Source of the DNA: Escherichia coli
GTDB lineage: Bacteria; Pseudomonadota; Gammaproteobacteria; Enterobacterales; Enterobacteriaceae
Assembly: GCF_030013205.1 (NCBI RefSeq)
Contig: NZ_CP122648.1
DNA: 64,000 nucleotides
Strand: one strand, 5' to 3'
Shown: positions 17,929 through 59,064 of the stretch, in pieces
Layout of the letters: each line of letters begins with the position of its first letter
Position numbering within the stretch: the first letter of the stretch is position 1
Notes under the pieces: generated by a model
What the model was told of the DNA's origin: nothing
The model's input: only the letters and a program-made list of their open reading frames with translations
The model's database searches: none
Program-made: the position numbers and the translations under genes

Positions 17929-18432
17929 TCAATGCAGCTGATGCGACACGACATTCAGAACATGTTGGTCGGTCTGCACAGGGCACATACCCGCAAGTTT
18001 CGCACTGCGCACTTCATCAAGAATGGTTTGCAGCAACAGGCCATCATGCTGCTGTTCTTTTTCCAGATCGCGCAGGAAATTGACGGTTGAATCATCATTC
18101 AGTTCTTTCGCTTCATCGGCTAACTGCGCCAGCGTGCTTGAACGTTGCTCGTATTCTTCCATCGTTTTTTGGAACAGTTCTTCCAGAGAGTTCAGTTTTT
18201 CACCGGGAACATCAATGGCTTTAACGATGGGGGTAGCGCCGACACTCTTCATAAAGTTAAACATGCGCATCATTTGGGTCACGTTACTCTGTGCCTGGGC
18301 GCGAAGGAAAGTGGCGGTGCCGTTCAGACTCTGTTCAGAACACCAGTTACTCAGGTGAAGGTAGAGATTGGATGCGTAAAACTCGCGGTTCATTTGAGAG
18401 TTGAGTTTGAGAAGCATTCCAGCGGTTGCCAT
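17929..18432 (-). CDS. ftnB: ferritin-like protein FtnB, 167 aa
   Basis: [61 protein letters not shown], paralogous to FtnA. Confidence 0.9.
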
Positions 18433-19228
18433 ACCTAATATCCTTATATCCAGAAGTGGAGAGGTGCAAGATAAATCAAAACACCATAATTACTGTTTGC
18501 AGAATAATTCCTTTCTGCCGGTCCGAAATGTGATCGTGGAGTCAATTCTGACGATGATCTGAAATAAGAATAACGTCTGAGCGGGTATAAGAAAATGCTT
18601 AAATCATCAAGTTTATATATTTTTACATTTCATTGATGAAATCAATGTAACTGCAATGAATTTTAATGATAGTGCTTTTTGTATCTTGTTGATATTAATC
18701 GATGAATTTGAATTCATGATGAAGTGATGATTTTATAAAACGTTTTTTCATTTTTGCGAGATGGCTCTCATTATACGTGTTCTGTTAATTAATGAGCACA
18801 GTGATAATTAATGGCGAAATGAATGACGCGCATTTTCCACATCTTTGAGTTGTGGTTATTACACCATTTCAAAAACTCAACGCCAGGTAATGCGGCCTGT
18901 TGACTGGTTAAAAAGAAGACATCCCGCATGGGTACCAAAGACAACAAGGATTTCCAGGCTAATCTTATGGATTAATCTGCTGTGCACTAGCCAATTTGTC
19001 AGACAAATTGGCTTTTCCTTATGTCTTTTCCCGCTAAATTTATGCACGTTCTCACTGTAATTCTGCGATGTGATATTGCTCTCCTATGGAGAATTAATTT
19101 CTCGCTAAAACTATGTCAACACAGTCACTTATCTTTTAGTTAAAAGGTAATGCTTTGTTTTCCGATTAATTTAACGAATGTCATTCGTTTTTGCCCTACA
19201 CAAAACGACACTAAAGCTGGAGAGAACC

Positions 19229-25175: not shown

Positions 25176-25604
25176 TTAATCTCCCGTAAGTGGAACTAAC
25201 AGCACATCGACCTCACTTGAGGCAATCACTCTTTTCGCCGAGCAGGATGCTCGCGAAAAGAAACTGTGATTGTGATTACCGCAAATCACCAAATCGAAAT
25301 GATATTTGCGACAAACTTCCAGAATATGTTCGCTTAACTCACCGTAGGCAATAAACGTCTTGTCAACGGGATACCCCGCATCCTGAATTAACTTATCAAG
25401 AAAGCTTTGCGTTTCTTCCTGCATCACGCTGCGTAAATCTTCAAGCATCGGCGCAGCTAATTGATTGTACATTTCCGGGTCGGACGCGAGAGTAATTAAA
25501 CTGATGTGTCCCTTTACTGGCCTGGCGATAGATACCGCTTTTGCCAGCAGTTGCTGACTTTCCGGTGTAACCGCAACGGCGACAAGAATATTGCTATAGC
25601 TCAT
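25176..25604 (-). CDS. uspC: universal stress protein UspC, 142 aa
   Basis: MSYSNILVAVAVTPESQQLLAKAVSIARPVKGHISLITLASDPEMYNQLAAPMLEDLRSVMQEETQSFLDKLIQDAGYPV... Confidence 0.9.
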   Translation of the reverse strand: MSYSNILVAVAVTPESQQLLAKAVSIARPVKGHISLITLASDPEMYNQLAAPMLEDLRSVMQEETQSFLDKLIQDAGYPVDKTFIAYGELSEHILEVCRKYHFDLVICGNHNHSFFSRASCSAKRVIASSEVDVLLVPLTGD

Positions 25605-26384
25605 AACCTGTTCCTTATTCTGTGAACTTCAGGTGACATTAAAGCTTTACTCCTAATGGAGAAACGACGCAATCCCAACTCAGTCAAACAGGTAAATATT
25701 AGTCTGATTATTAGTAAAGACAATTAATCAATCACTCTCGGTGATCATATGATTTCAACTGTAATTATAAGAAAATAATGTACTGATTCTCCATATTAAA
25801 CAAGTGGTTAATACATGTAAAACATTTTATTAACATTAAGTTGATTGTTGCCTTTCTTTGTATTTAATTAGTTTGTTGTGCGGTAAATGTCTGTTTAAAA
25901 ATAGCTTATCTGGTATTGCATTAAAGCAATTATTTATGGCAGATGATTATTTACGGTGAGTTATTTTAACTGTGCGCAACATCCCATTTCGATTATTCCT
26001 GTTTCATTTTTGCTTGCTAGAGTCGCGAAAAACTTTTTAACAGATTGAAATACACCCAAAACAAAAGTATGACTTATACATTTATGTTAAGTAATTGAGC
26101 GTTTTGTGTGATCTGTATCACACATTATTGAAAATCGCAGCCCCCCTCCGTTGTATGTGAGTGTAGTGACGAGTAAAGTTGCGTCGATTTAGGAAAAATC
26201 TTAGATAAGTGTAAAGAACCCCTTCTATTTGTGAGGACTTATTAAATCCAAAAAAGGGGCTCTGCCTGTTGCAGCTTATCGCAACTATTCTAATGCTAAT
26301 TATTTTTTACCGGGGCTTCCCGGCGACATCACGGGGTGCGGTGAGACCGCATAAAAATAAAGTTGGTTATTCTGGGTGGGAATA
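25605..26384 (+). promoter_or_regulatory. flhDC upstream regulatory region and long 5' leader (AT-rich), no IS element present
   Basis: 780-bp AT-rich intergenic segment preceding flhD; by established knowledge this region carries the class 1 promoter and multiple regulator and sRNA target sites; individual sites not resolved here. Confidence 0.5.
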
Positions 26385-42765: not shown

Positions 42766-44499
42766 TTACATACGCTCTACTGTCTCAATACCCAGCGTAT
42801 CCAGACCCAGTTTCAGCGTCTTCGCCGTCAGTTGTGCCAGTTTCAGACGGCTGTTACGCACTTCTTCGTTTTCTGCGCTGAGGATCGGGCAGTGCTCGTA
42901 GAAGCCAGAGAACAGACCAGCCAGATCGTACAGGTAAGCACACATCACATGCGGCGTGCCTTCACGGGCAACCACGGTGAGGGTTTCTTCAAACTGCAGC
43001 AGGCGAGCTGCCAGTTGCGCTTCACGATCTTCACGGATGATAACCGGAGCTGCAGCCAGTTGCTCTTCGTCAATTTCTGCTTTACGGAACACGGACAATA
43101 CACGCGTGTATGCATACTGCATGTATGGCGCGGTATTACCCTCAAACGCCAGCATGTTGTCCCAGTCGAAGATGTAGTCCGTGGTGCGGTTTTTGGAGAG
43201 ATCCGCATATTTCACCGCACCAATACCAACCGCGTTAGCCAGTTTTTCCAGCTCGTCGGCTGGCATATCCGGGTTCTTTTCTGCCACCAGACGACGTGCA
43301 CGCTCCAGGGCTTCATCCAGCAGATCGGCCAGTTTCACTGTACCACCCGCGCGGGTTTTGAACGGTTTGCCGTCTTTGCCCAGCATCATGCCGAACATGT
43401 GGTGTTCCAGCGGTACGGATTCCGGTACATAGCCTGCTTTACGGACGATAGCCCACGCCTGCATCAGGTGTTGATGCTGACGGGAGTCGATGTAATACAG
43501 CACGCGATCGGCATGCAGTGTTTCATAACGATATTTCGCACAGGCGATATCAGTGGTGGTGTAGAGATAGCCACCATCTTTCTTCTGAATGATCACGCCC
43601 ATCGGTTCGCCTTCCTTGTTTTTGAACTCATCAAGGAATACGACGGTCGCGCCTTCACTTTCTACTGCCAGACCTTTGGCTTTCAGGTCCGCCACGATAC
43701 CCGGCAGCATTGGGTTGTAGAGACTTTCACCCATGACGTCATCGCGGGTCAACGTCACGTTCAGACGATCGTAGGTGATCTGGTTCTGCGTCATGGTGAT
43801 GTCGACCAGTTTGCGCCACATCTCGCGGAAATATTCGTCACCGCTTTGCAGTTTGACTACGTAGTTACGTGCACGCTCGGCAAACTCTTCATCTTCGTCG
43901 TAATGCTTTTTCGCATCGCGGTAGAAACCTTCAAGGTCAGCCAGCTCCATTTCACCGGCGTTTTCTTGCTGCTGCTTTTCCAACCACGCAATCAGCATAC
44001 CGAACTGAGTACCCCAGTCGCCGACGTGGTTCGCGCGAATCACTTTGTGACCGAGGAACTCCAGAGTACGCACTGCCGCGTCACCAATAATGGTAGAGCG
44101 CAGGTGACCGACGTGCATCTCTTTCGCCACGTTCGGAGCGGAGTAGTCAACCACAATGGTCTGTTTTTCTGGCGTAGCAACACCGAGACGATCGGACGCC
44201 AGCGCCTGCTGAACATGATCAGCCAGGAAGGCTGGATCAAGAAAAATGTTGATAAAGCCTGGACCGGCGATCTCAACTTTGCTGGCGATACCGTTAAGAT
44301 CCAGATGAGTCAGCACCTGCTCTGCTAATTGTCGCGGTGCCATACCCAGTTTTTTAGCAACTGCCATCATGCCGTTAGCCTGATAGTCGCCGAACTGAAC
44401 TTTTGCTGACTGACGAACCTGCGGTTCGCAATCCGCAGGCGCGCCTGCCGCAATCATGGCCTGACGGACTTTTTCTGAGAGAAGAGCCTGAATATTCAC
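42766..44499 (-). CDS. argS: arginine--tRNA ligase ArgS, 577 aa
   Basis: [63 protein letters not shown]..., class I HIGH-type motif HVGH. Confidence 0.96.
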
Positions 44500-44714
44500 C
44501 GGAATACCTTACATTGATGAAGCGAGCAAAAATTGCCCGCACCAGTTAAAGAAATTAGGGCGGGAGTATACTGCAAATGGCTGTTTTCGTCAGCAACGTG
44601 CGCGTGGCGTATTGCCGTTTTCACTATTGCATCAGAAGCGGCGTGAAATCAGCGGTTGGTTGGCGCAGGGCAACAGGGTAAATTAACGCTTTTACTGAAA
44701 GACGAAGAGTGATT

Positions 44715-45281
44715 ATGGCGAACTGGCAATCTATCGACGAGTTGCAGGATATTGCATCGGATTTACCGCGATTTACCCACGCATTAGATGAACTTTCCCG
44801 CCGTCTGGGGTTGGATATCACTCCGCTGACTGCCGATCACATTTCCTTGCGTTGCCATCAAAACGTCACCGCTGAACGCTGGCGTCGCGGGTTTGAACAG
44901 TGCGGCGAGCTTTTGTCAGAAAATATGATCAATGGCAGACCGATTTGTCTGTTTAAATTGCATGAACCGGTACAGGTTGCGCACTGGCAGTTTTCCATTG
45001 TGGAGCTACCGTGGCCCGGGGAAAAACGTTACCCGCACGAAGGTTGGGAACATATTGAAATCGTTCTGCCGGGCGATCCAGAAACGCTGAATGCCCGTGC
45101 GCTGGCATTGCTTTCTGATGAAGGACTCAGCCTGCCGGGGATCTCAGTTAAAACCAGTTCGCCAAAAGGTGAGCATGAGCGATTACCGAACCCGACGCTG
45201 GCGGTCACCGATGGCAAAACGACCATTAAATTTCATCCGTGGTCCATTGAAGAGATCGTTGCCAGCGAGCAGTCAGCGTAA
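44715..45281 (+). CDS. yecM: VOC-family protein YecM, 188 aa
   Basis: MANWQSIDELQDIASDLPRFTHALDELSRRLGLDITPLTADHISLRCHQNVTAERWRRGFEQCGELL; start codon assignment uncertain (ATG at 44709 also possible). Confidence 0.85.
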   Translation: MANWQSIDELQDIASDLPRFTHALDELSRRLGLDITPLTADHISLRCHQNVTAERWRRGFEQCGELLSENMINGRPICLFKLHEPVQVAHWQFSIVELPWPGEKRYPHEGWEHIEIVLPGDPETLNARALALLSDEGLSLPGISVKTSSPKGEHERLPNPTLAVTDGKTTIKFHPWSIEEIVASEQSA

Positions 45282-45285
45282 TTAA

Positions 45286-46041
<756 letters not shown>

Positions 46042-46087
46042 TTTTTACCGTTGCATCATGTCGCCCAATATGATGCTTGCTCGTACC

Positions 46088-46121
46088 AGGCCCCTGCAAT
46101 TTCAACAGGGGCCTTTTTTTA
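46088..46121 (+). terminator. rho-independent terminator after cutC
   Basis: aggcccctg-caatttcaa-caggggcct followed by ttttttt. Confidence 0.7.
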
Positions 46122-46426
46122 TCCCTGAATAGTATAAAAAATGAACGATTACCGCGATCTGTTGAGCGGGTGACAGTGCACATAGCGTTGTGCTAAAAAT
46201 TTTTATATATTCATATTAATTATGTAATTTAAATTACTAAAACTGACAAATATGTATTCTAAATAACAACTGGGTTATTCCTTAGCAATTAATGATTACA
46301 TTGTAATAAATCATATTCTTTATCGATTATTTCAGGCAGTGTTGTGCCGAATTATGCAAGCGGTCAATTCGTTGTATATTTAATTATACAATGATTTCGG
46401 TGTTCTGGAATTAATTAGAGGAATCT

Positions 46427-47527
46427 ATGCGAGGGAAAAAACGCATTGGGTTAATGTTTTTGCTGATAGCGGTTGTGGTTGGTGGCGGCGGGTTATTGCT
46501 GGCGCAAAAAGCCTTACATAAAACGTCGGATACAGCATTTTGCCTTTCCTGCCACTCGATGAGTAAACCTTTTGAGGAATATCAGGGAACTGTCCACTTT
46601 TCGAACCAGAAAGGGATACGTGCGGAATGTGCCGATTGCCATATTCCAAAGTCAGGGATGGATTATTTATTTGCTAAATTAAAAGCATCTAAAGATATTT
46701 ATCATGAATTTGTTAGCGGCAAAATAGACAGTGACGATAAGTTCGAAGCGCATCGTCAGGAAATGGCCGAAACAGTATGGAAAGAATTAAAAGCCACTGA
46801 CTCTGCAACGTGCCGTAGTTGCCATTCTTTTGATGCCATGGATATTGCCTCGCAAAGTGAATCTGCGCAGAAAATGCATAACAAAGCACAAAAGGGCGGC
46901 GAAACCTGTATCGATTGTCATAAAGGCATTGCTCATTTTCCGCCAGAAATAAAAATGGATGACAACGCGGCGCATGAGCTGGAAAGTCAGGCCGCTACTT
47001 CAGTGACTAATGGCGTACATATTTATCCTTTCAAAACTTCTCGCATAGGCGAGCTGGCTACCGTGAATCCTGGTACCGATCTCATCGTCGTTGATGCCAG
47101 TGGCAAACAGCCGATCGTTCTGTTGCAGGGTTATCAAATGCAGGGCAGTGAAAACACGCTCTACCTGGCGGCAGGTCAACGGCTGGCACTAGCCACATTA
47201 AGTGAAGAAGGTATCAAGGCGCTCACGGTAAACGGGGAATGGCAGGCTGACGAATACGGCAATCAATGGCGTCAGGCGTCTTTACAGGGTGCGCTTACCG
47301 ATCCCGCATTAGCGGACCGTAAACCGCTATGGCAATACGCTGAAAAACTTGACGATACCTATTGCGCTGGTTGCCATGCCCCTATTGCCTCCGACCATTA
47401 CACCGTCAATGCATGGCCGTCCATTGCCAAAGGAATGGGGGCGCGAACCAGCATGAGCGAAAACGAACTGGACATTTTGACGCGGTACTTCCAGTACAAC
47501 GCCAAAGATATTACCGAGAAACAGTGA
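46427..47527 (+). CDS. torY: NapC/NirT-family pentahaem c-type cytochrome TorY, 366 aa
   Basis: Five CxxCH haem motifs (CLSCH, CADCH, CRSCH, CIDCH, CAGCH); N-terminal membrane anchor [26 protein letters not shown]. Confidence 0.93.
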
Positions 47528-47551
47528 TCCTCGTTGATCAGGGAGGAAGTT

Positions 47552-49981
47552 ATGACATTAACAAGACGTGAATTTATTAAACACAGCGGTATTGCCGCTG
47601 GGGCGCTGGTGGTGACATCGGCTGCACCGCTACCCGCATGGGCAGAAGAGAAGGGTGGCAAAATCCTCACCGCGGGCCGTTGGGGAGCGATGAACGTAGA
47701 AGTGAAGGACGGCAAGATTGTTTCTTCAACAGGCGCGCTGGCGAAAACTATACCGAACTCCTTACAGTCTACGGAGGTGGATCAGGTACACACCACGGCG
47801 CGTATTCAGCATCCGATGGTGAGAAAAAGCTATCTCGATAATCCACTGCAACCGGCGAAAGGTCGTGGCGAAGATACCTATGTACAGGTGAGCTGGGAAC
47901 AAGCATTAAAACTGATTCATGAGCAACACGATCGTATTCGTAAAGCTAACGGACCATCGGCCATTTTTGCCGGATCTTACGGCTGGCGATCTTCTGGCGT
48001 GTTGCATAAAGCGCAAACCTTACTGCAACGTTATATGAACCTTGCGGGCGGTTATTCCGGGCATAGCGGCGATTATTCAACCGGTGCGGCACAGGTGATC
48101 ATGCCGCATGTGGTGGGTTCCGTGGAGGTGTATGAACAGCAGACCTCCTGGCCGCTGATTCTGGAAAACAGCCAGGTTGTGGTGCTGTGGGGGATGAACC
48201 CGCTGAATACCTTGAAAATTGCCTGGAGCAGTACCGATGAGCAAGGGCTGGAATACTTCCATCAGCTGAAAAAATCTGGCAAACCCGTGATTGCCATTGA
48301 TCCTATCCGCTCCGAAACCATCGAGTTCTTTGGCGATAACGCGACCTGGATCGCGCCGAATATGGGGACCGACGTGGCGCTGATGTTAGGGATTGCGCAC
48401 ACCTTGATGGTACAAGGTAAGCACGATAAGGCCTTCCTGGAAAAATACACCACCGGCTACCCGCAGTTTGAAGAGTATCTGGCAGGCAAGAGCGATAATA
48501 CGCCGAAGAGCGCGGCCTGGGCGGCGGAAATTTCTGGCGTACCGGAAGCGCAGATAGTCAAACTCGCTGAACTGATGGCGGCGAATCGCACAATGCTGAT
48601 GGCAGGCTGGGGAATTCAGCGCCAGCAATATGGTGAACAGAAACACTGGATGCTGGTGACGCTGGCGGCAATGTTAGGGCAGATTGGTACACCGGGCGGC
48701 GGTTTTGGTTTCTCTTATCATTACTCCAACGGTGGCAACCCGACGCGTGTTGGCGGCGTGCTGCCGGAAATGTCTGCGGCGATTGCCGGACAGGCCAGCG
48801 AGGCCGCTGATGATGGCGGAATGACGGCGATTCCTGTTGCCCGTATCGTCGATGCGCTGGAAAATCCTGGTGGTAAATATCAGCATAACGGTAAAGAACA
48901 AACGTATCCGAATATCAAAATGATCTGGTGGGCGGGTGGCGGTAACTTTACCCATCACCAGGATACTAATCGTCTGATTAAAGCATGGCAGAAACCGGAG
49001 ATGATCGTCGTTTCTGAATGCTACTGGACCGCAGCTGCTAAACATGCAGATATCGTATTACCGATCACCACATCGTTTGAGCGCAATGACTTAACGATGA
49101 CCGGTGATTACAGCAACCAGCATATTGTGCCGATGAAGCAGGCTGTCGCTGCGCAATTTGAAGCGCGTAACGATTTTGACGTGTTTGCCGATCTTGCTGA
49201 ATTACTCAAACCTGGCGGAAAAGAGATCTATACCGAAGGTAAAGATGAGATGGCGTGGCTGAAATTTTTCTATGATGCCGCTCAGAAAGGTGCCCGTGCG
49301 CAACGCGTGACTATGCCGATGTTTAATGCCTTCTGGCAGCAAAATAAACTGATCGAAATGCGCCGCAGCGAGAAGAACGAACAGTACGTTCGTTATGGTG
49401 ATTTCCGCGCCGATCCGGTGAAAAATGCGCTGGGTACGCCAAGCGGCAAAATTGAGATTTACTCCAAAACGCTGGAAAAATTTGGCTATAAGGATTGCCC
49501 GGCACACCCAACCTGGCTTGCGCCTGATGAGTGGAAGGGTACCGCCGACGAGAAGCAGTTGCAGCTTCTGACCGCACATCCGGCACATCGTTTACACAGT
49601 CAGCTTAACTATGCGGAACTGCGCAAAAAATATGCGGTTGCCGATCGTGAACCGATCACTATTCACACCGAAGATGCTGCTCGCTTTGGTATTGCGAATG
49701 GCGATCTGGTGCGTGTCTGGAACAAACGTGGTCAGATTCTGACAGGCGCGGTGGTGACTGACGGGATCAAAAAAGGCGTGGTATGCGTGCATGAAGGTGC
49801 ATGGCCAGATCTGGAAAATGGCTTGTGTAAAAACGGCAGTGCGAACGTGTTAACGGCGGATATCCCCAGCTCTCAGCTGGCAAATGCCTGTGCCGGTAAC
49901 TCTGCGCTGGTGTATATCGAAAAATATACGGGTAACGCACCGAAGTTAACGGCGTTTGATCAGCCAGCTGTTCAGGCATAA
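47552..49981 (+). CDS. torZ: molybdoenzyme TMAO/N-oxide reductase TorZ (BisZ), 809 aa, Tat signal
   Basis: [31 protein letters not shown] twin-arginine signal followed by DMSO-reductase-family body; ORF-track start trimmed. Confidence 0.93.
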
Positions 49982-49987
49982 GACGTG

Positions 49988-50012
49988 AAAAGCGCCCGGA
50001 AACGGGCGCTAA
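49988..50012. terminator. bidirectional terminator between convergent torZ and cmoB
   Basis: agcgcccg-gaaa-cgggcgct hairpin. Confidence 0.55.
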
Positions 50013-50015
50013 TCT

Positions 50016-52163
<2,148 letters not shown>

Positions 52164-57575: not shown

Positions 57576-58178
57576 TTATACCGCCTCGGTCAGTTCCGGC
57601 TGAGGCGTTTCTACTCCCTCCGCATGAATCAACACCAAACCCGGATGATGCCACAAACTGGCTGGCGTGACGGTTTTACGCTCCCACGGAATAGAACCCA
57701 GGAACCAGAATTTCCAGAAAGTGAGTTTTGCATTCGGATTGCTATTTAACAATTCTCCAAACGTCTCTATTTCACCCACCGGAATACATAGCGCCTCTTT
57801 ATAAATATCAAAAACAAATTTTGAACAGAACTGGCGCGAAGATTCGTATTTAAAACCGGTGTGGTAAAGTTTGCGTAGCCGGGAGGGAACCTGTTCAACA
57901 ATTCGTTGTTTTTGTTGTTCTGTAAGCCCGGCGTCTAATCGCTTTATAGCATAGCGTTGATTAGAAGAACGTTTAATAAAACGAGATAGCGTGGTGATGG
58001 TTGAAAGGGGAACCCGGCTTTCTGCAACCAGGAAGTCTTCACCGTTATGACCGATAATGATCCCGACGTGATTACTCCAGCAATTTGATGCAGCTGATAT
58101 TTGACCAAATAAGGCAGCACCTATACATGTAAAGACGATATCACCAATTTCATATTCAGCAGGATAATTAATATTCAC
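57576..58178 (-). CDS. yebB: uncharacterized protein YebB, about 200 aa (start uncertain; ORF extends to ATG at 58211)
   Basis: ...[71 protein letters not shown]... convergent with ruvC. Confidence 0.8.
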
Positions 58179-58383
58179 GTTGTCATTCCATTGAAATAGA
58201 TACGAATACACGTAATAGCATAAAAAATTTATTTTTTCAGGAGTCGCAATGTATATTTTTATTACGCATTTCTTCGCTGAATATGTAATATTTAAATATT
58301 TGCTTCCAATATAACCTGTAGAATAAATTATACTGCGCCATTTTTCAGATCATCGGGACGCCTCGCAAGTTTTCTTCATCCTT

Positions 58384-58403
58384 CGCTGGATATCTATCCA
58401 GCA
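58384..58403. promoter_or_regulatory. LexA (SOS) box upstream of ruvAB
   Basis: cgCTGGatatctatCCAGca, palindromic CTG-N10-CAG operator about 50 nt upstream of ruvA start. Confidence 0.7.
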
Positions 58404-58452
58404 TTTTTTTATCATACAGCATTATCTTTGATTCATTACGCAGGAGCGTCAT

Positions 58453-59064
58453 GTGATAGGCAGACTCAGAGGCATCATCATTGAAAAACAACCCCCGCTG
58501 GTGTTAATTGAAGTGGGCGGCGTAGGCTATGAAGTGCATATGCCGATGACCTGTTTTTATGAACTCCCTGAAGCGGGTCAGGAAGCGATCGTTTTCACCC
58601 ACTTTGTGGTGCGTGAAGACGCGCAATTGCTGTACGGTTTTAACAATAAACAAGAGCGCACGTTGTTCAAAGAGTTGATCAAAACCAACGGCGTCGGCCC
58701 GAAGTTGGCGCTGGCGATCCTCTCCGGAATGTCAGCGCAGCAGTTCGTTAATGCCGTTGAGCGTGAAGAAGTGGGGGCGCTGGTGAAACTGCCGGGTATT
58801 GGCAAAAAAACCGCCGAACGCTTGATTGTTGAAATGAAAGACCGATTTAAAGGTTTGCATGGCGATCTCTTTACGCCAGCCGCCGACCTGGTACTCACGT
58901 CTCCTGCCAGCCCGGCGACCGACGATGCTGAACAGGAAGCGGTTGCTGCGCTGGTGGCGCTGGGCTATAAACCACAAGAAGCAAGCCGCATGGTGAGCAA
59001 AATCGCTCGCCCTGACGCCAGCAGTGAAACATTAATTCGCGAAGCCCTACGCGCCGCGTTATGA
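58453..59064 (+). CDS. ruvA: Holliday junction branch migration protein RuvA, 203 aa, GTG start
   Basis: (M)[74 protein letters not shown]. Confidence 0.95.

Follow-up and report, generated by a model that had tools for sequence, protein, structure and literature searches.

An intact torYZ operon downstream of an AT-rich, probably H-NS-silenced spacer in an Escherichia coli chromosome

The region 46427-49981 of the 64,000-nucleotide stretch of Escherichia coli DNA analysed here (the window) is, very probably, an ordinary and intact chromosomal torYZ operon, the third TMAO/S-oxide reductase system of the species, expressed at a low level because of H-NS silencing of the spacer which precedes it. 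The window DNA belongs to the E. coli chromosome and is 100% identical to that of porcine O139:H1 strains; the RefSeq annotation of the identical DNA reports torY and torZ. With the corresponding family models also matched, the description of the region as an ordinary, complete accessory respiratory system, given in a previous reading of the sequence alone (the sequence-only reading), was sustained. The operon is already known, having been described since 2000, annotated in RefSeq and found in essentially every E. coli. The gene order is cutC/MicL, spacer, torY, torZ and convergent cmoB. Gene integrity, family membership, composition, the MicL RNA, synteny, selection and spacer conservation were all analysed directly; H-NS binding and low expression are drawn from the K-12 literature.

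torY (46427-47527, + strand) is an ORF of 366 amino acids, preceded by a ribosome-binding site, AGAGGAA, at 46417-46423. Its product is a membrane-anchored pentahaem c-type cytochrome, a quinol dehydrogenase of the NapC/NirT-TorC type. Residues 6-174 match PF03264 (NapC/NirT) with an E-value of 8.9e-70. A hydrophobic N-terminal segment (residues 9-26) serves as predicted membrane anchor, and the tetrahaem domain has four CxxCH motifs, at residues 39, 68, 129 and 161; a fifth haem motif, CAGCH, is found at residue 313, within a C-terminal extension of the TorC/TorY/DorC type, so that the pentahaem nature attributed to TorY at first sight is matched by five motifs. The TorC model TIGR02162 aligns to the protein from end to end (residues 5-365), but the scores fall below the cut-offs of both TorC equivalogs (308 vs 478 bits for TIGR02162, 251 vs 455 for NF011606), which indicates a paralogue of TorC, rather than TorC proper. 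No solved structure related to TorY was found by sequence.

torZ, formerly bisZ (47552-49981, + strand), is predicted to encode a periplasmic, Tat-exported bis-MGD N-/S-oxide reductase. Its start was placed at the ATG at 47552, and not at the TTG at 47534 reported in the mechanical ORF list: the ATG is preceded by the ribosome-binding site AGGGAGGAAG (47540-47549) and opens a frame of 809 amino acids, exactly the length of K-12 TorZ. The gap between the two genes is 24 nt. The molybdopterin domains PF00384, PF01568 and PF18364 are all present, and a score of 1257 bits against TIGR00509 (cut-off 1018) assigns the protein to the BisC/TorZ/DorA subfamily of S/N-oxide reductases; the TorA equivalogs NF011682 and TIGR02164 are matched below cut-off (850 vs 909 and 811 vs 1465 bits, respectively). 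The Tat signal model TIGR01409 is matched at residues 3-31 with 27.1 bits (cut-off 16.7), and the signal displays a TRREFIK motif followed by an AWA-EE cleavage context. With TIGR01409 and TIGR00509 both above cut-off, the proposal that TorZ is a molybdoenzyme of the Tat-exported type appears well founded, as far as family models can tell. Tyr143 and Trp145 (within SYGW), as well as Ser176 (within DYSTGAAQ), are aligned to the corresponding motifs in DMSO reductase and MtsZ; according to the literature, the serine is the Mo ligand and the Tyr/Trp active-site pair is found in S-oxide-competent enzymes.

Both genes are full length, as previously claimed: no internal stops were found and both products align to their K-12 counterparts without gaps, TorY with 358 identical residues out of 366 (98%, 8 substitutions) and TorZ with 797 out of 809 (98.5%, 12 substitutions). 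None of these changes falls in a haem motif, the Tat motif or the active-site motifs. An identity of at least 99% to this locus is reached by only 18 of 5425 genomes. An unusually divergent torYZ allele was ruled out, as the same degree of divergence from K-12 (96-99%) is seen in the flanking genes, argS to yecE; the divergence is thus a lineage effect. torZ and cmoB are convergent and 34 bp apart; in the gap, a GC-rich hairpin, AGCGCCCG-GAAA-CGGGCGCT (49991-50010, no strand assigned), was located by alignment with K-12. It is probably a terminator shared by the two genes, with a better T-run on the cmoB side; the consensus terminator scan did not call it. The REP/BIME element of about 130 bp that follows torZ in K-12 is absent here.

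Of 5426 complete E. coli genomes, 5425 carry the locus, and in 5307 at least 80% of its length is found at a single location; about 2% are without a contiguous copy, for example through IS5 insertion or truncation. The dN/dS ratios, 0.16 for torY and 0.05 for torZ, are similar to those of neighbouring housekeeping genes. Purifying selection and near-universal presence together indicate that the operon is not decaying. Low native expression and the small fraction of genomes in which the locus is not contiguous are what would be expected of a silenced relic drifting to pseudogenisation, but such a fate is highly improbable, given these dN/dS values, the presence of both full-length ORFs here and in about 98% of genomes, the integrity of every catalytic and haem motif, and the conservation of the regulatory DNA above the neutral rate.

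Synteny was evaluated on 25 species-representative loci, collected by requiring the MicL terminator to match one exact pattern; this sample includes only three Escherichia species and misses the E. coli representative. In all three Escherichia loci the terminator is followed by a spacer of 295-308 bp, with a GC content of 26-31%, and then by torY, with torZ present wherever the locus extends far enough. In 19 of the 22 loci from other genera, convergent cmoB is found directly after 40-230 bp of 42-65% GC. Among the genera sampled, Escherichia is therefore the only one in which the block formed by the spacer and torYZ, about 3.9 kb long, separates the MicL/cutC terminator from cmoB. This arrangement would fit an old horizontal acquisition in which only the leader and the 5' third of torY have escaped amelioration; the GC content of torZ (52%) is genome-typical, so that composition offers no proof of a foreign origin. 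Alternatively, torYZ may have been lost from the other genera, instead of being gained in Escherichia. The leader accompanies the operon, in a block which is specific to Escherichia and under purifying selection.

The DNA upstream of torY had been described as extremely AT-rich over the whole interval 46042-46426, 385 bp long and with an overall GC content of 33.2%. The description holds for 46121-46426 (306 bp, 29.7% GC), but not for the first 79 nt (46.8% GC), which correspond to MicL-S and to the cutC terminator and are not torY promoter DNA. The lowest 200-bp window of the upstream region has a GC content of 24.5%, vs 50.4% for the whole 64-kb window; 306-bp windows equally AT-rich account for 0.4% of all those in the 64 kb, and three other regions reach similar values. 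From composition and alignment, 46121-46426 (+ strand) was defined as the cutC/MicL-torY spacer, which includes the torYZ regulatory region. Neither ORFs of at least 20 amino acids wholly contained within it nor RNA families other than MicL (Rfam, E ≤ 1) were detected.

The start of the upstream region is occupied by the small RNA MicL, which had been overlooked in the sequence-only reading. MicL (45813-46120, + strand) was identified by Rfam model RF02654, matched from position 1 to 308 with 368 bits (gathering threshold 56) and an E-value of 4.6e-112. Its start lies inside cutC and it is separate from torYZ. MicL is a sigma-E-dependent repressor of lpp, whose transcript ends were taken from PMC4102768; in the window, sigma-E promoter elements, GGAACTT (45780-45786)-N16-TCCAA, are found upstream of 45813. 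The processed end of the RNA, MicL-S, together with the cutC terminator, spans 46041-46120, with a GC content of 47%. micL is annotated at the homologous place in K-12, with 305 of 308 identical positions for MicL and 80 of 80 for MicL-S. MicL-S is a well-characterised regulatory RNA and does not belong in a torY promoter fusion.

The spacer is 94% identical to that of K-12, with 18 substitutions and two single-base indels. Its conservation was evaluated on an alignment of five sequences, from the window, K-12 and three other Escherichia species. In the proximal 231 bp (46196-46426), 84% of the columns are invariant, against 67% of the 4-fold degenerate positions in torYZ (p = 1.6e-8), while the figure is 51% in the poorly conserved distal 75 bp (46121-46195). 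Across Escherichia species, conservation of the proximal 230 bp or so of the spacer therefore exceeds the neutral rate, and this stretch provides a defined target in the search for a natural inducer. Its conserved blocks lie at 46196-46247, 46286-46325, 46330-46348 and 46366-46399.

Some candidate signals were evaluated within the spacer. A sigma-70 promoter of torYZ, GTGACA-18-TAAAAA, has been predicted from a SELEX peak, rather than from a mapped start (PMC3946193), and its sequence is present here at 46170-46199 (+ strand). Its -35 hexamer reads GTAACA in two Escherichia species and is deleted in E. whittamii; this lack of conservation makes the identification doubtful, and the element was not adopted as the torYZ promoter. 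A perfect 7-bp inverted repeat, TTGTATA-N6-TATACAA (46372-46391, no strand assigned), precedes the torY ATG by 36-55 bp and is a candidate for an operator or promoter element; it overlaps a candidate -10 hexamer, TACAAT (46387-46392), and lies in a conserved block, of which 46366-46382 and 46390-46399 are invariant in all five sequences. As an operator it was not taken to be significant, since the two perfect 7-bp inverted repeats observed compare with a mean of 0.49 in shuffles of this AT-rich DNA, 12% of which reach two; in addition, one arm varies in two species, and the repeat was kept as a candidate only. Resemblances of spacer palindromes to TyrR, FNR or CusR/HprR boxes were rejected on account of unsuitable spacing or conservation; in the FNR study no site is predicted within the spacer, and its Table S6 has no entry for torY or torZ. 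A consensus scan of the + strand of the spacer called no promoter matching at least 9 of 12 positions; the same scan also missed the MicL terminator, which has a 9-nt loop, and the torZ/cmoB hairpin, and is thus uninformative for promoters and terminators.

The proposal that the operon is silenced or poorly expressed finds support in published experiments (H-NS ChIP-chip, SELEX and expression data), all of them on K-12. H-NS ChIP-chip regions are reported at 1955116-1956791 under anaerobic and at 1954944-1958210 under aerobic growth (PMC3688515 Table S3, U00096.2 coordinates). Mapped on the window, these correspond approximately to 45792-47467 and 44373-47639, respectively, and cover the spacer and torY. 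For the conversion between K-12 sequence versions an offset of +1976 was assumed. Genomic SELEX located sites for both H-NS and the RpoD holoenzyme in the cutC-torY spacer of K-12 (PMC3946193), and the K-12 list of sigma-70 ChIP-seq peaks from anaerobic growth contains none in the spacer. An FNR peak within torZ (0.195 to 0.400) and a 2-fold O2-dependent change of torZ are both reported only for a delta-hns/delta-stpA mutant. Expression of torYZ in K-12 is described as constitutively low (Gon et al. 2000, as cited in PMC1805755), and a strain relying on torYZ only does not respire TMAO unless the operon is overexpressed. Exposure of a uropathogenic strain to HOCl, copper or paraquat induces torZ 4-fold, 6-fold and 3-fold, respectively.

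Most likely, a filament of H-NS, together with StpA, would nucleate on the AT-rich spacer and occlude the promoter and the sites for transcription factors. Expression of torYZ would then need relief of silencing, and HOCl, copper and paraquat, in addition to anaerobiosis once H-NS is absent, would be its reported mild inducers. By analogy with K-12, we infer that this strain is subject to the same silencing; the AT-richness which H-NS silencing presupposes at the sequence level is present here. The link between the AT-rich leader and published H-NS occupancy is one use of the present check.

Promoter regions rich in AT are common, and repression is not proved by H-NS binding alone. The spacer might accordingly hold an ordinary weak promoter, with low torYZ expression resulting from poor promoter sequence or a missing activator and H-NS binding being incidental. 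The + strand of the spacer has no strong sigma-70 consensus, in vitro binding to the spacer requires nothing beyond the RpoD holoenzyme, aerobic and anaerobic cultures of the H-NS/StpA-deficient strain differ only 2-fold in torZ, and the conserved proximal blocks suggest sites for specific factors, rather than bulk silencing. This explanation is nevertheless considered unlikely: the H-NS regions over spacer and torY are extended (>1 kb) under both growth conditions, the same ChIP study associates extended H-NS regions with low RNAP occupancy, and FNR binding in torZ appears only when H-NS and StpA are missing.

Under H-NS silencing of the leader, torZ could still be served by a promoter of its own in the 3' end of torY, independent of the silenced DNA. 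A sigma-70 ChIP-seq peak labelled torZ (U00096.2 1955110-1955119, about 47464-47473 in the window) precedes the torZ ATG by some 80-88 bp and is located at the border of the anaerobic H-NS region, with higher occupancy under anaerobic growth, and a TTGACG hexamer is found at 47477-47482. An acceptable -10 hexamer is missing 16-19 bp downstream of TTGACG, however, no promoter is called there by the consensus scan, and the peak could reflect RNAP trapped at the H-NS boundary or a spurious intragenic site; the odds are against such a promoter.

As to function, homology suggests that TorY, in the inner membrane, would oxidise quinol and hand electrons through its five haems to TorZ. The latter would fold in the cytoplasm, around its bis-MGD molybdenum cofactor, before export by the Tat system; in the periplasm, it would reduce N-oxides, such as TMAO, and S-oxides, such as DMSO and biotin sulfoxide. 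It is conceivable, at somewhat less than even chance, that TorYZ mainly acts in the repair or scavenging of periplasmic S-oxides (methionine or biotin sulfoxide) under oxidative stress, and not as a respiratory TMAO reductase. The closest solved structure is that of a methionine sulfoxide reductase, MtsZ/TorZ of H. influenzae, the Tyr/Trp pair of S-oxide-competent enzymes is kept in TorZ, torZ responds to HOCl, copper and paraquat in the uropathogenic strain, and at native expression the torYZ-only strain does not grow on TMAO. Against these observations, overexpressed torYZ is quoted as giving the best anaerobic growth on TMAO (Gon et al. 2000, through a secondary source), and a published phylogeny sets E. 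coli TorZ in a BisC-related group, outside that of H. influenzae TorZ/MtsZ. The repair role and the N-/S-oxide respiratory system favoured here diverge on physiological role only.

A more speculative proposal, to which a low probability is assigned, is that the proximal spacer (46196-46426) holds sites for a specific regulator or anti-silencer responding to oxidative or copper stress; TorYZ would then be dedicated to periplasmic S-oxide repair, perhaps with a torZ-only promoter inside torY. In this case torYZ would gain a physiological inducer and a role, and would no longer be merely a redundant respiratory enzyme.

Comparison with known systems places torYZ next to acquired loci of the hlyE type, silenced by H-NS and endowed with masked FNR sites: its AT-rich leader is similarly located inside an extended H-NS region, and hlyE and torZ are named together in the FNR study, with FNR binding and anaerobic regulation observed solely on a delta-hns/delta-stpA background. 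torYZ differs from such loci in being core to E. coli, in its largely genome-like coding GC content and in the purifying selection acting on it; it is not, therefore, a recent island. Rhodobacter DorA (4DMR, 1EU1) shares its fold with TorZ over the whole length (E about 1e-249), and the SYGW and DYSTGAAQ motifs, the latter with the Ser bound to Mo, are conserved; DorA belongs, however, to another organism and to a dorCDA operon, which has a chaperone and separate regulators. Among solved structures, the best relative of TorZ is H. influenzae MtsZ/TorZ (7L5I, E 8.7e-300, residues 37-806). The H. influenzae TorYZ system is likewise encoded by an operon of two genes, about 25 bp apart, its pentahaem TorY also being 366 aa long, but its enzyme prefers methionine sulfoxide, is induced under oxygen limitation and, in the published phylogeny, falls in a group separate from the BisC-related E. 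coli TorZ.

Within E. coli, torCAD similarly combines a pentahaem cytochrome of the NapC/NirT type with a Tat-exported bis-MGD reductase, and TorY and TorZ strongly match TorC and TorA models, respectively, yet below the equivalog cut-offs. No torD, torR, torS or torT was found within about 3.5 kb on either side of torYZ. According to the literature, TorZ has the active-site Tyr and reduces S-oxides, while TorA does neither, and torCAD is induced by TMAO via TorR, whereas torYZ expression is constitutively low (PMC1805755). The closest system is K-12 torYZ itself (yecK-bisZ; b1873-b1872; Gon et al. 2000), which shares with the operon described here the locus, the gene order, the protein lengths and the AT-rich spacer; the substitutions in proteins and spacer, and the REP/BIME element after torZ, are lineage differences.

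The window, which is part of the E. coli chromosome, carries torY at 46427-47527 (plus strand, 366 aa) and torZ at 47552-49981 (plus strand, 809 aa), separated by 24 nt. A gap of 385 bp divides torY from cutC (45295-46041, plus strand), which is preceded by yecM and by argS, the latter on the minus strand; downstream, cmoB and cmoA are convergent with torZ. Several porcine O139:H1 and ETEC genomes match the region 45900-50100 at 100% identity, and RefSeq labels their DNA there as cutC, torY, torZ and cmoB. In a mechanical ORF list torZ begins at TTG 47534; AGGGAGGAAG stands in front of the ATG at 47552, and translation from this ATG yields 809 aa, as in K-12 TorZ. The sequence-only reading had described both genes as intact, which is confirmed by gapless, full-length alignments to the K-12 proteins, with 358/366 identities for TorY and 797/809 for TorZ. 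The 34-bp torZ-cmoB gap (49982-50015) contains a single GC-rich hairpin (49991-50010), whereas K-12 carries there about 130 additional bp of REP/BIME-type repeats.

According to the K-12 annotation, the sRNA MicL spans the 3' end of cutC; its 308-nt transcript starts within cutC, from a sigma-E promoter (PMC4102768). The Rfam model is matched over its full length at 45813-46120 (plus strand, 368 bits against a gathering score of 56), the sigma-E elements GGAACTT and TCCAA are found at 45780-45807, and the processed end, MicL-S (46041-46120, plus strand), is identical to K-12 at 80/80 positions. The initial 79 nt of the interval 46042-46426, claimed to be extremely AT-rich, are therefore MicL-S plus its terminator, with a GC content of 46.8%. 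The claim holds for the remaining 306 bp, 46121-46426, hereafter the spacer, where GC is 29.7%, falling to 24.5% in the lowest 200-bp window; the 64 kb as a whole have 50.4%, and only 0.4% of their 306-bp windows are equally AT-rich. If a promoter fusion began at 46042, as had been proposed, it would carry a strong terminator. Three other segments, 18423-18926, 25559-26159 and 58023-58460, match the torY leader in AT-richness (minimum 306-bp GC of 27-31%).

Published K-12 coordinates were transferred by using an offset of +1976 between versions of the MG1655 sequence, which is consistent with the authors' peak labels. The H-NS ChIP-chip regions of Myers et al. (2013, PMC3688515), 1955116-1956791 under anaerobic and 1954944-1958210 under aerobic conditions, refer to version U00096.2 and, once converted to the current one, correspond to window positions ~45792-47467 and ~44373-47639; they therefore extend over the 3' end of cutC, MicL included, across all of the spacer and over almost the entire torY. 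In the same study, extended H-NS regions (>1 kb) go with low RNAP occupancy, the spacer has no entry in the anaerobic sigma-70 peak list, and torZ is named among the genes whose FNR binding and regulation are unmasked without H-NS and StpA: an FNR ChIP-chip peak "within torZ" is significant only for the delta-hns/delta-stpA mutant (from 0.195 to 0.400), and a 2-fold O2-dependent change of torZ is restricted to that mutant. For the torY-cutC spacer, Shimada et al. (2014, PMC3946193) list a site of the RpoD holoenzyme and one of H-NS, and a 2025 study reports modest torZ induction by HOCl (4-fold), copper (6-fold) and paraquat (3-fold; PMC12096835). These K-12 data bear directly on the operon and support, when carried over to this strain, the suggestion that it may be silenced or poorly expressed.

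A published K-12 sigma-70 ChIP-seq peak labelled 'torZ' falls at window ~47464-47482, within the torY 3' end, at a distance of about 80-88 bp upstream of the torZ start codon and on the border of the anaerobic H-NS region. No matching -10 was found downstream of the TTGACG at 47477-47482, and the peak could represent either a torZ-only promoter or trapped RNAP. A published K-12 IHF ChIP-chip region (U00096.2 1956449-1957477, window ~45106-46134) overlies cutC and MicL and ends at the MicL terminator.

When the window is aligned with K-12 and E. whittamii, 84% of the columns of the proximal spacer (46196-46426) are invariant, against 67% of the torYZ 4-fold degenerate sites (p = 1.6e-8), while the distal part (46121-46195) is 51% invariant, under the neutral level, and holds a 13-bp indel. 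The published prediction of a torYZ promoter, GTGACA-18-TAAAAA at 46170-46199, is doubtful, since its -35 falls in the unconserved distal part. Invariant blocks include TTTCAGGCAGTGTTGTGCC (46330-46348) and 46366-46399. Within the latter lie TTGTATA-N6-TATACAA (46372-46391), which is a perfect inverted repeat, and TACAAT, a possible -10. Both are only candidates, such repeats being statistically not unusual at the spacer composition.

A scan of species-representative genomes with the pattern of the MicL terminator recovered 25 loci, two of which end at the terminator match. In 19 of them (11 Citrobacter, Salmonella enterica subsp. diarizonae, 2 Raoultella, a Klebsiella MAG, 2 Enterobacter, Lelliottia and Huaxiibacter) a convergent cmoB follows directly, after 40-230 bp of 42-65% GC. 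A spacer of 295-308 bp and 26-31% GC followed by torY was found in only three loci, all from Escherichia, including E. whittamii, with torZ present wherever the locus reaches that far. Spacer and operon (~46121-50010) therefore behave as one block of ~3.9 kb, specific to Escherichia among the sampled genera. This fits an old acquisition, but loss of the block in other genera, with no gain in Escherichia, could also account for the distribution, and the GC content of torZ, 52%, is genome-like.

The junction 3' of cutC/MicL varies among genera. The remaining locus, from Pseudenterobacter timonensis (L024, 1-3245), has unrelated genes past the terminator: neither cmoB nor torY, but a convergent GCS2-family gene, a cold-shock-domain gene, a GNAT acetyltransferase and a GMC-oxidoreductase fragment. 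Among the cutC-cmoB spacers of loci L003, L004, L006, L011, L012, L023 and L025, several Citrobacter and Salmonella ones are set apart from their relatives by a GC-rich, hairpin-like insert of ~55 bp, CACCCCGGTCACGTAGTTATCTACGCTCCCGGGG, which looks like a small repeat element.

The block is maintained under purifying selection and is not decaying. Compared with K-12, torY has a dN/dS of 0.16 and torZ one of 0.05, within the neighbours' range (cutC 0.13, cmoB 0.02). Of 5426 complete E. coli genomes, 5425 have the block, and in 5307 at least 80% of it lies in one place. Near-identical genomes (at least 99%) are few, 18, a lineage effect, since the flanking genes are equally diverged. A contiguous torYZ copy is missing in ~2% of the complete genomes; two matches, H25 and H45, are natural disruptions, one by an IS5-family insertion and the other by truncation of torZ.

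TorY has a hydrophobic N-terminal anchor and five CxxCH motifs (residues 39, 68, 129, 161, 313), and matches the NapC/NirT family (PF03264, E 9e-70). The TorC equivalog model covers it end to end at 308 bits, under the 478 cut-off, as expected of the TorY paralogue; a sequence search detected no solved relatives of TorY. TorZ contains all three molybdopterin-oxidoreductase domains, passes the Tat signal model (27.1 against 16.7 bits; motif TRREFIK) and the S/N-oxide reductase subfamily model TIGR00509 (1257 against 1018 bits), and does not reach the TorA equivalog cut-offs. Among solved structures, the nearest to TorZ is H. influenzae TorZ/MtsZ (7L5I, E 8.7e-300), with Rhodobacter DMSO reductases next. 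E. coli TorZ keeps SYGW (Tyr143, Trp145) and DYSTGAAQ (Ser176); the active-site Tyr has been associated with S-oxide reduction, TorA being without this activity (PMC5122715).

The sequence-only reading is usefully corrected on two points, the overlap with MicL-S and the narrower extent of the AT-rich DNA; the Escherichia-specific block, its purifying selection and the conserved 230-bp regulatory segment are small additions. The system is, as had been judged, ordinary and complete: a known, annotated and near-universal E. coli operon, whose leader is already placed under H-NS by published work.
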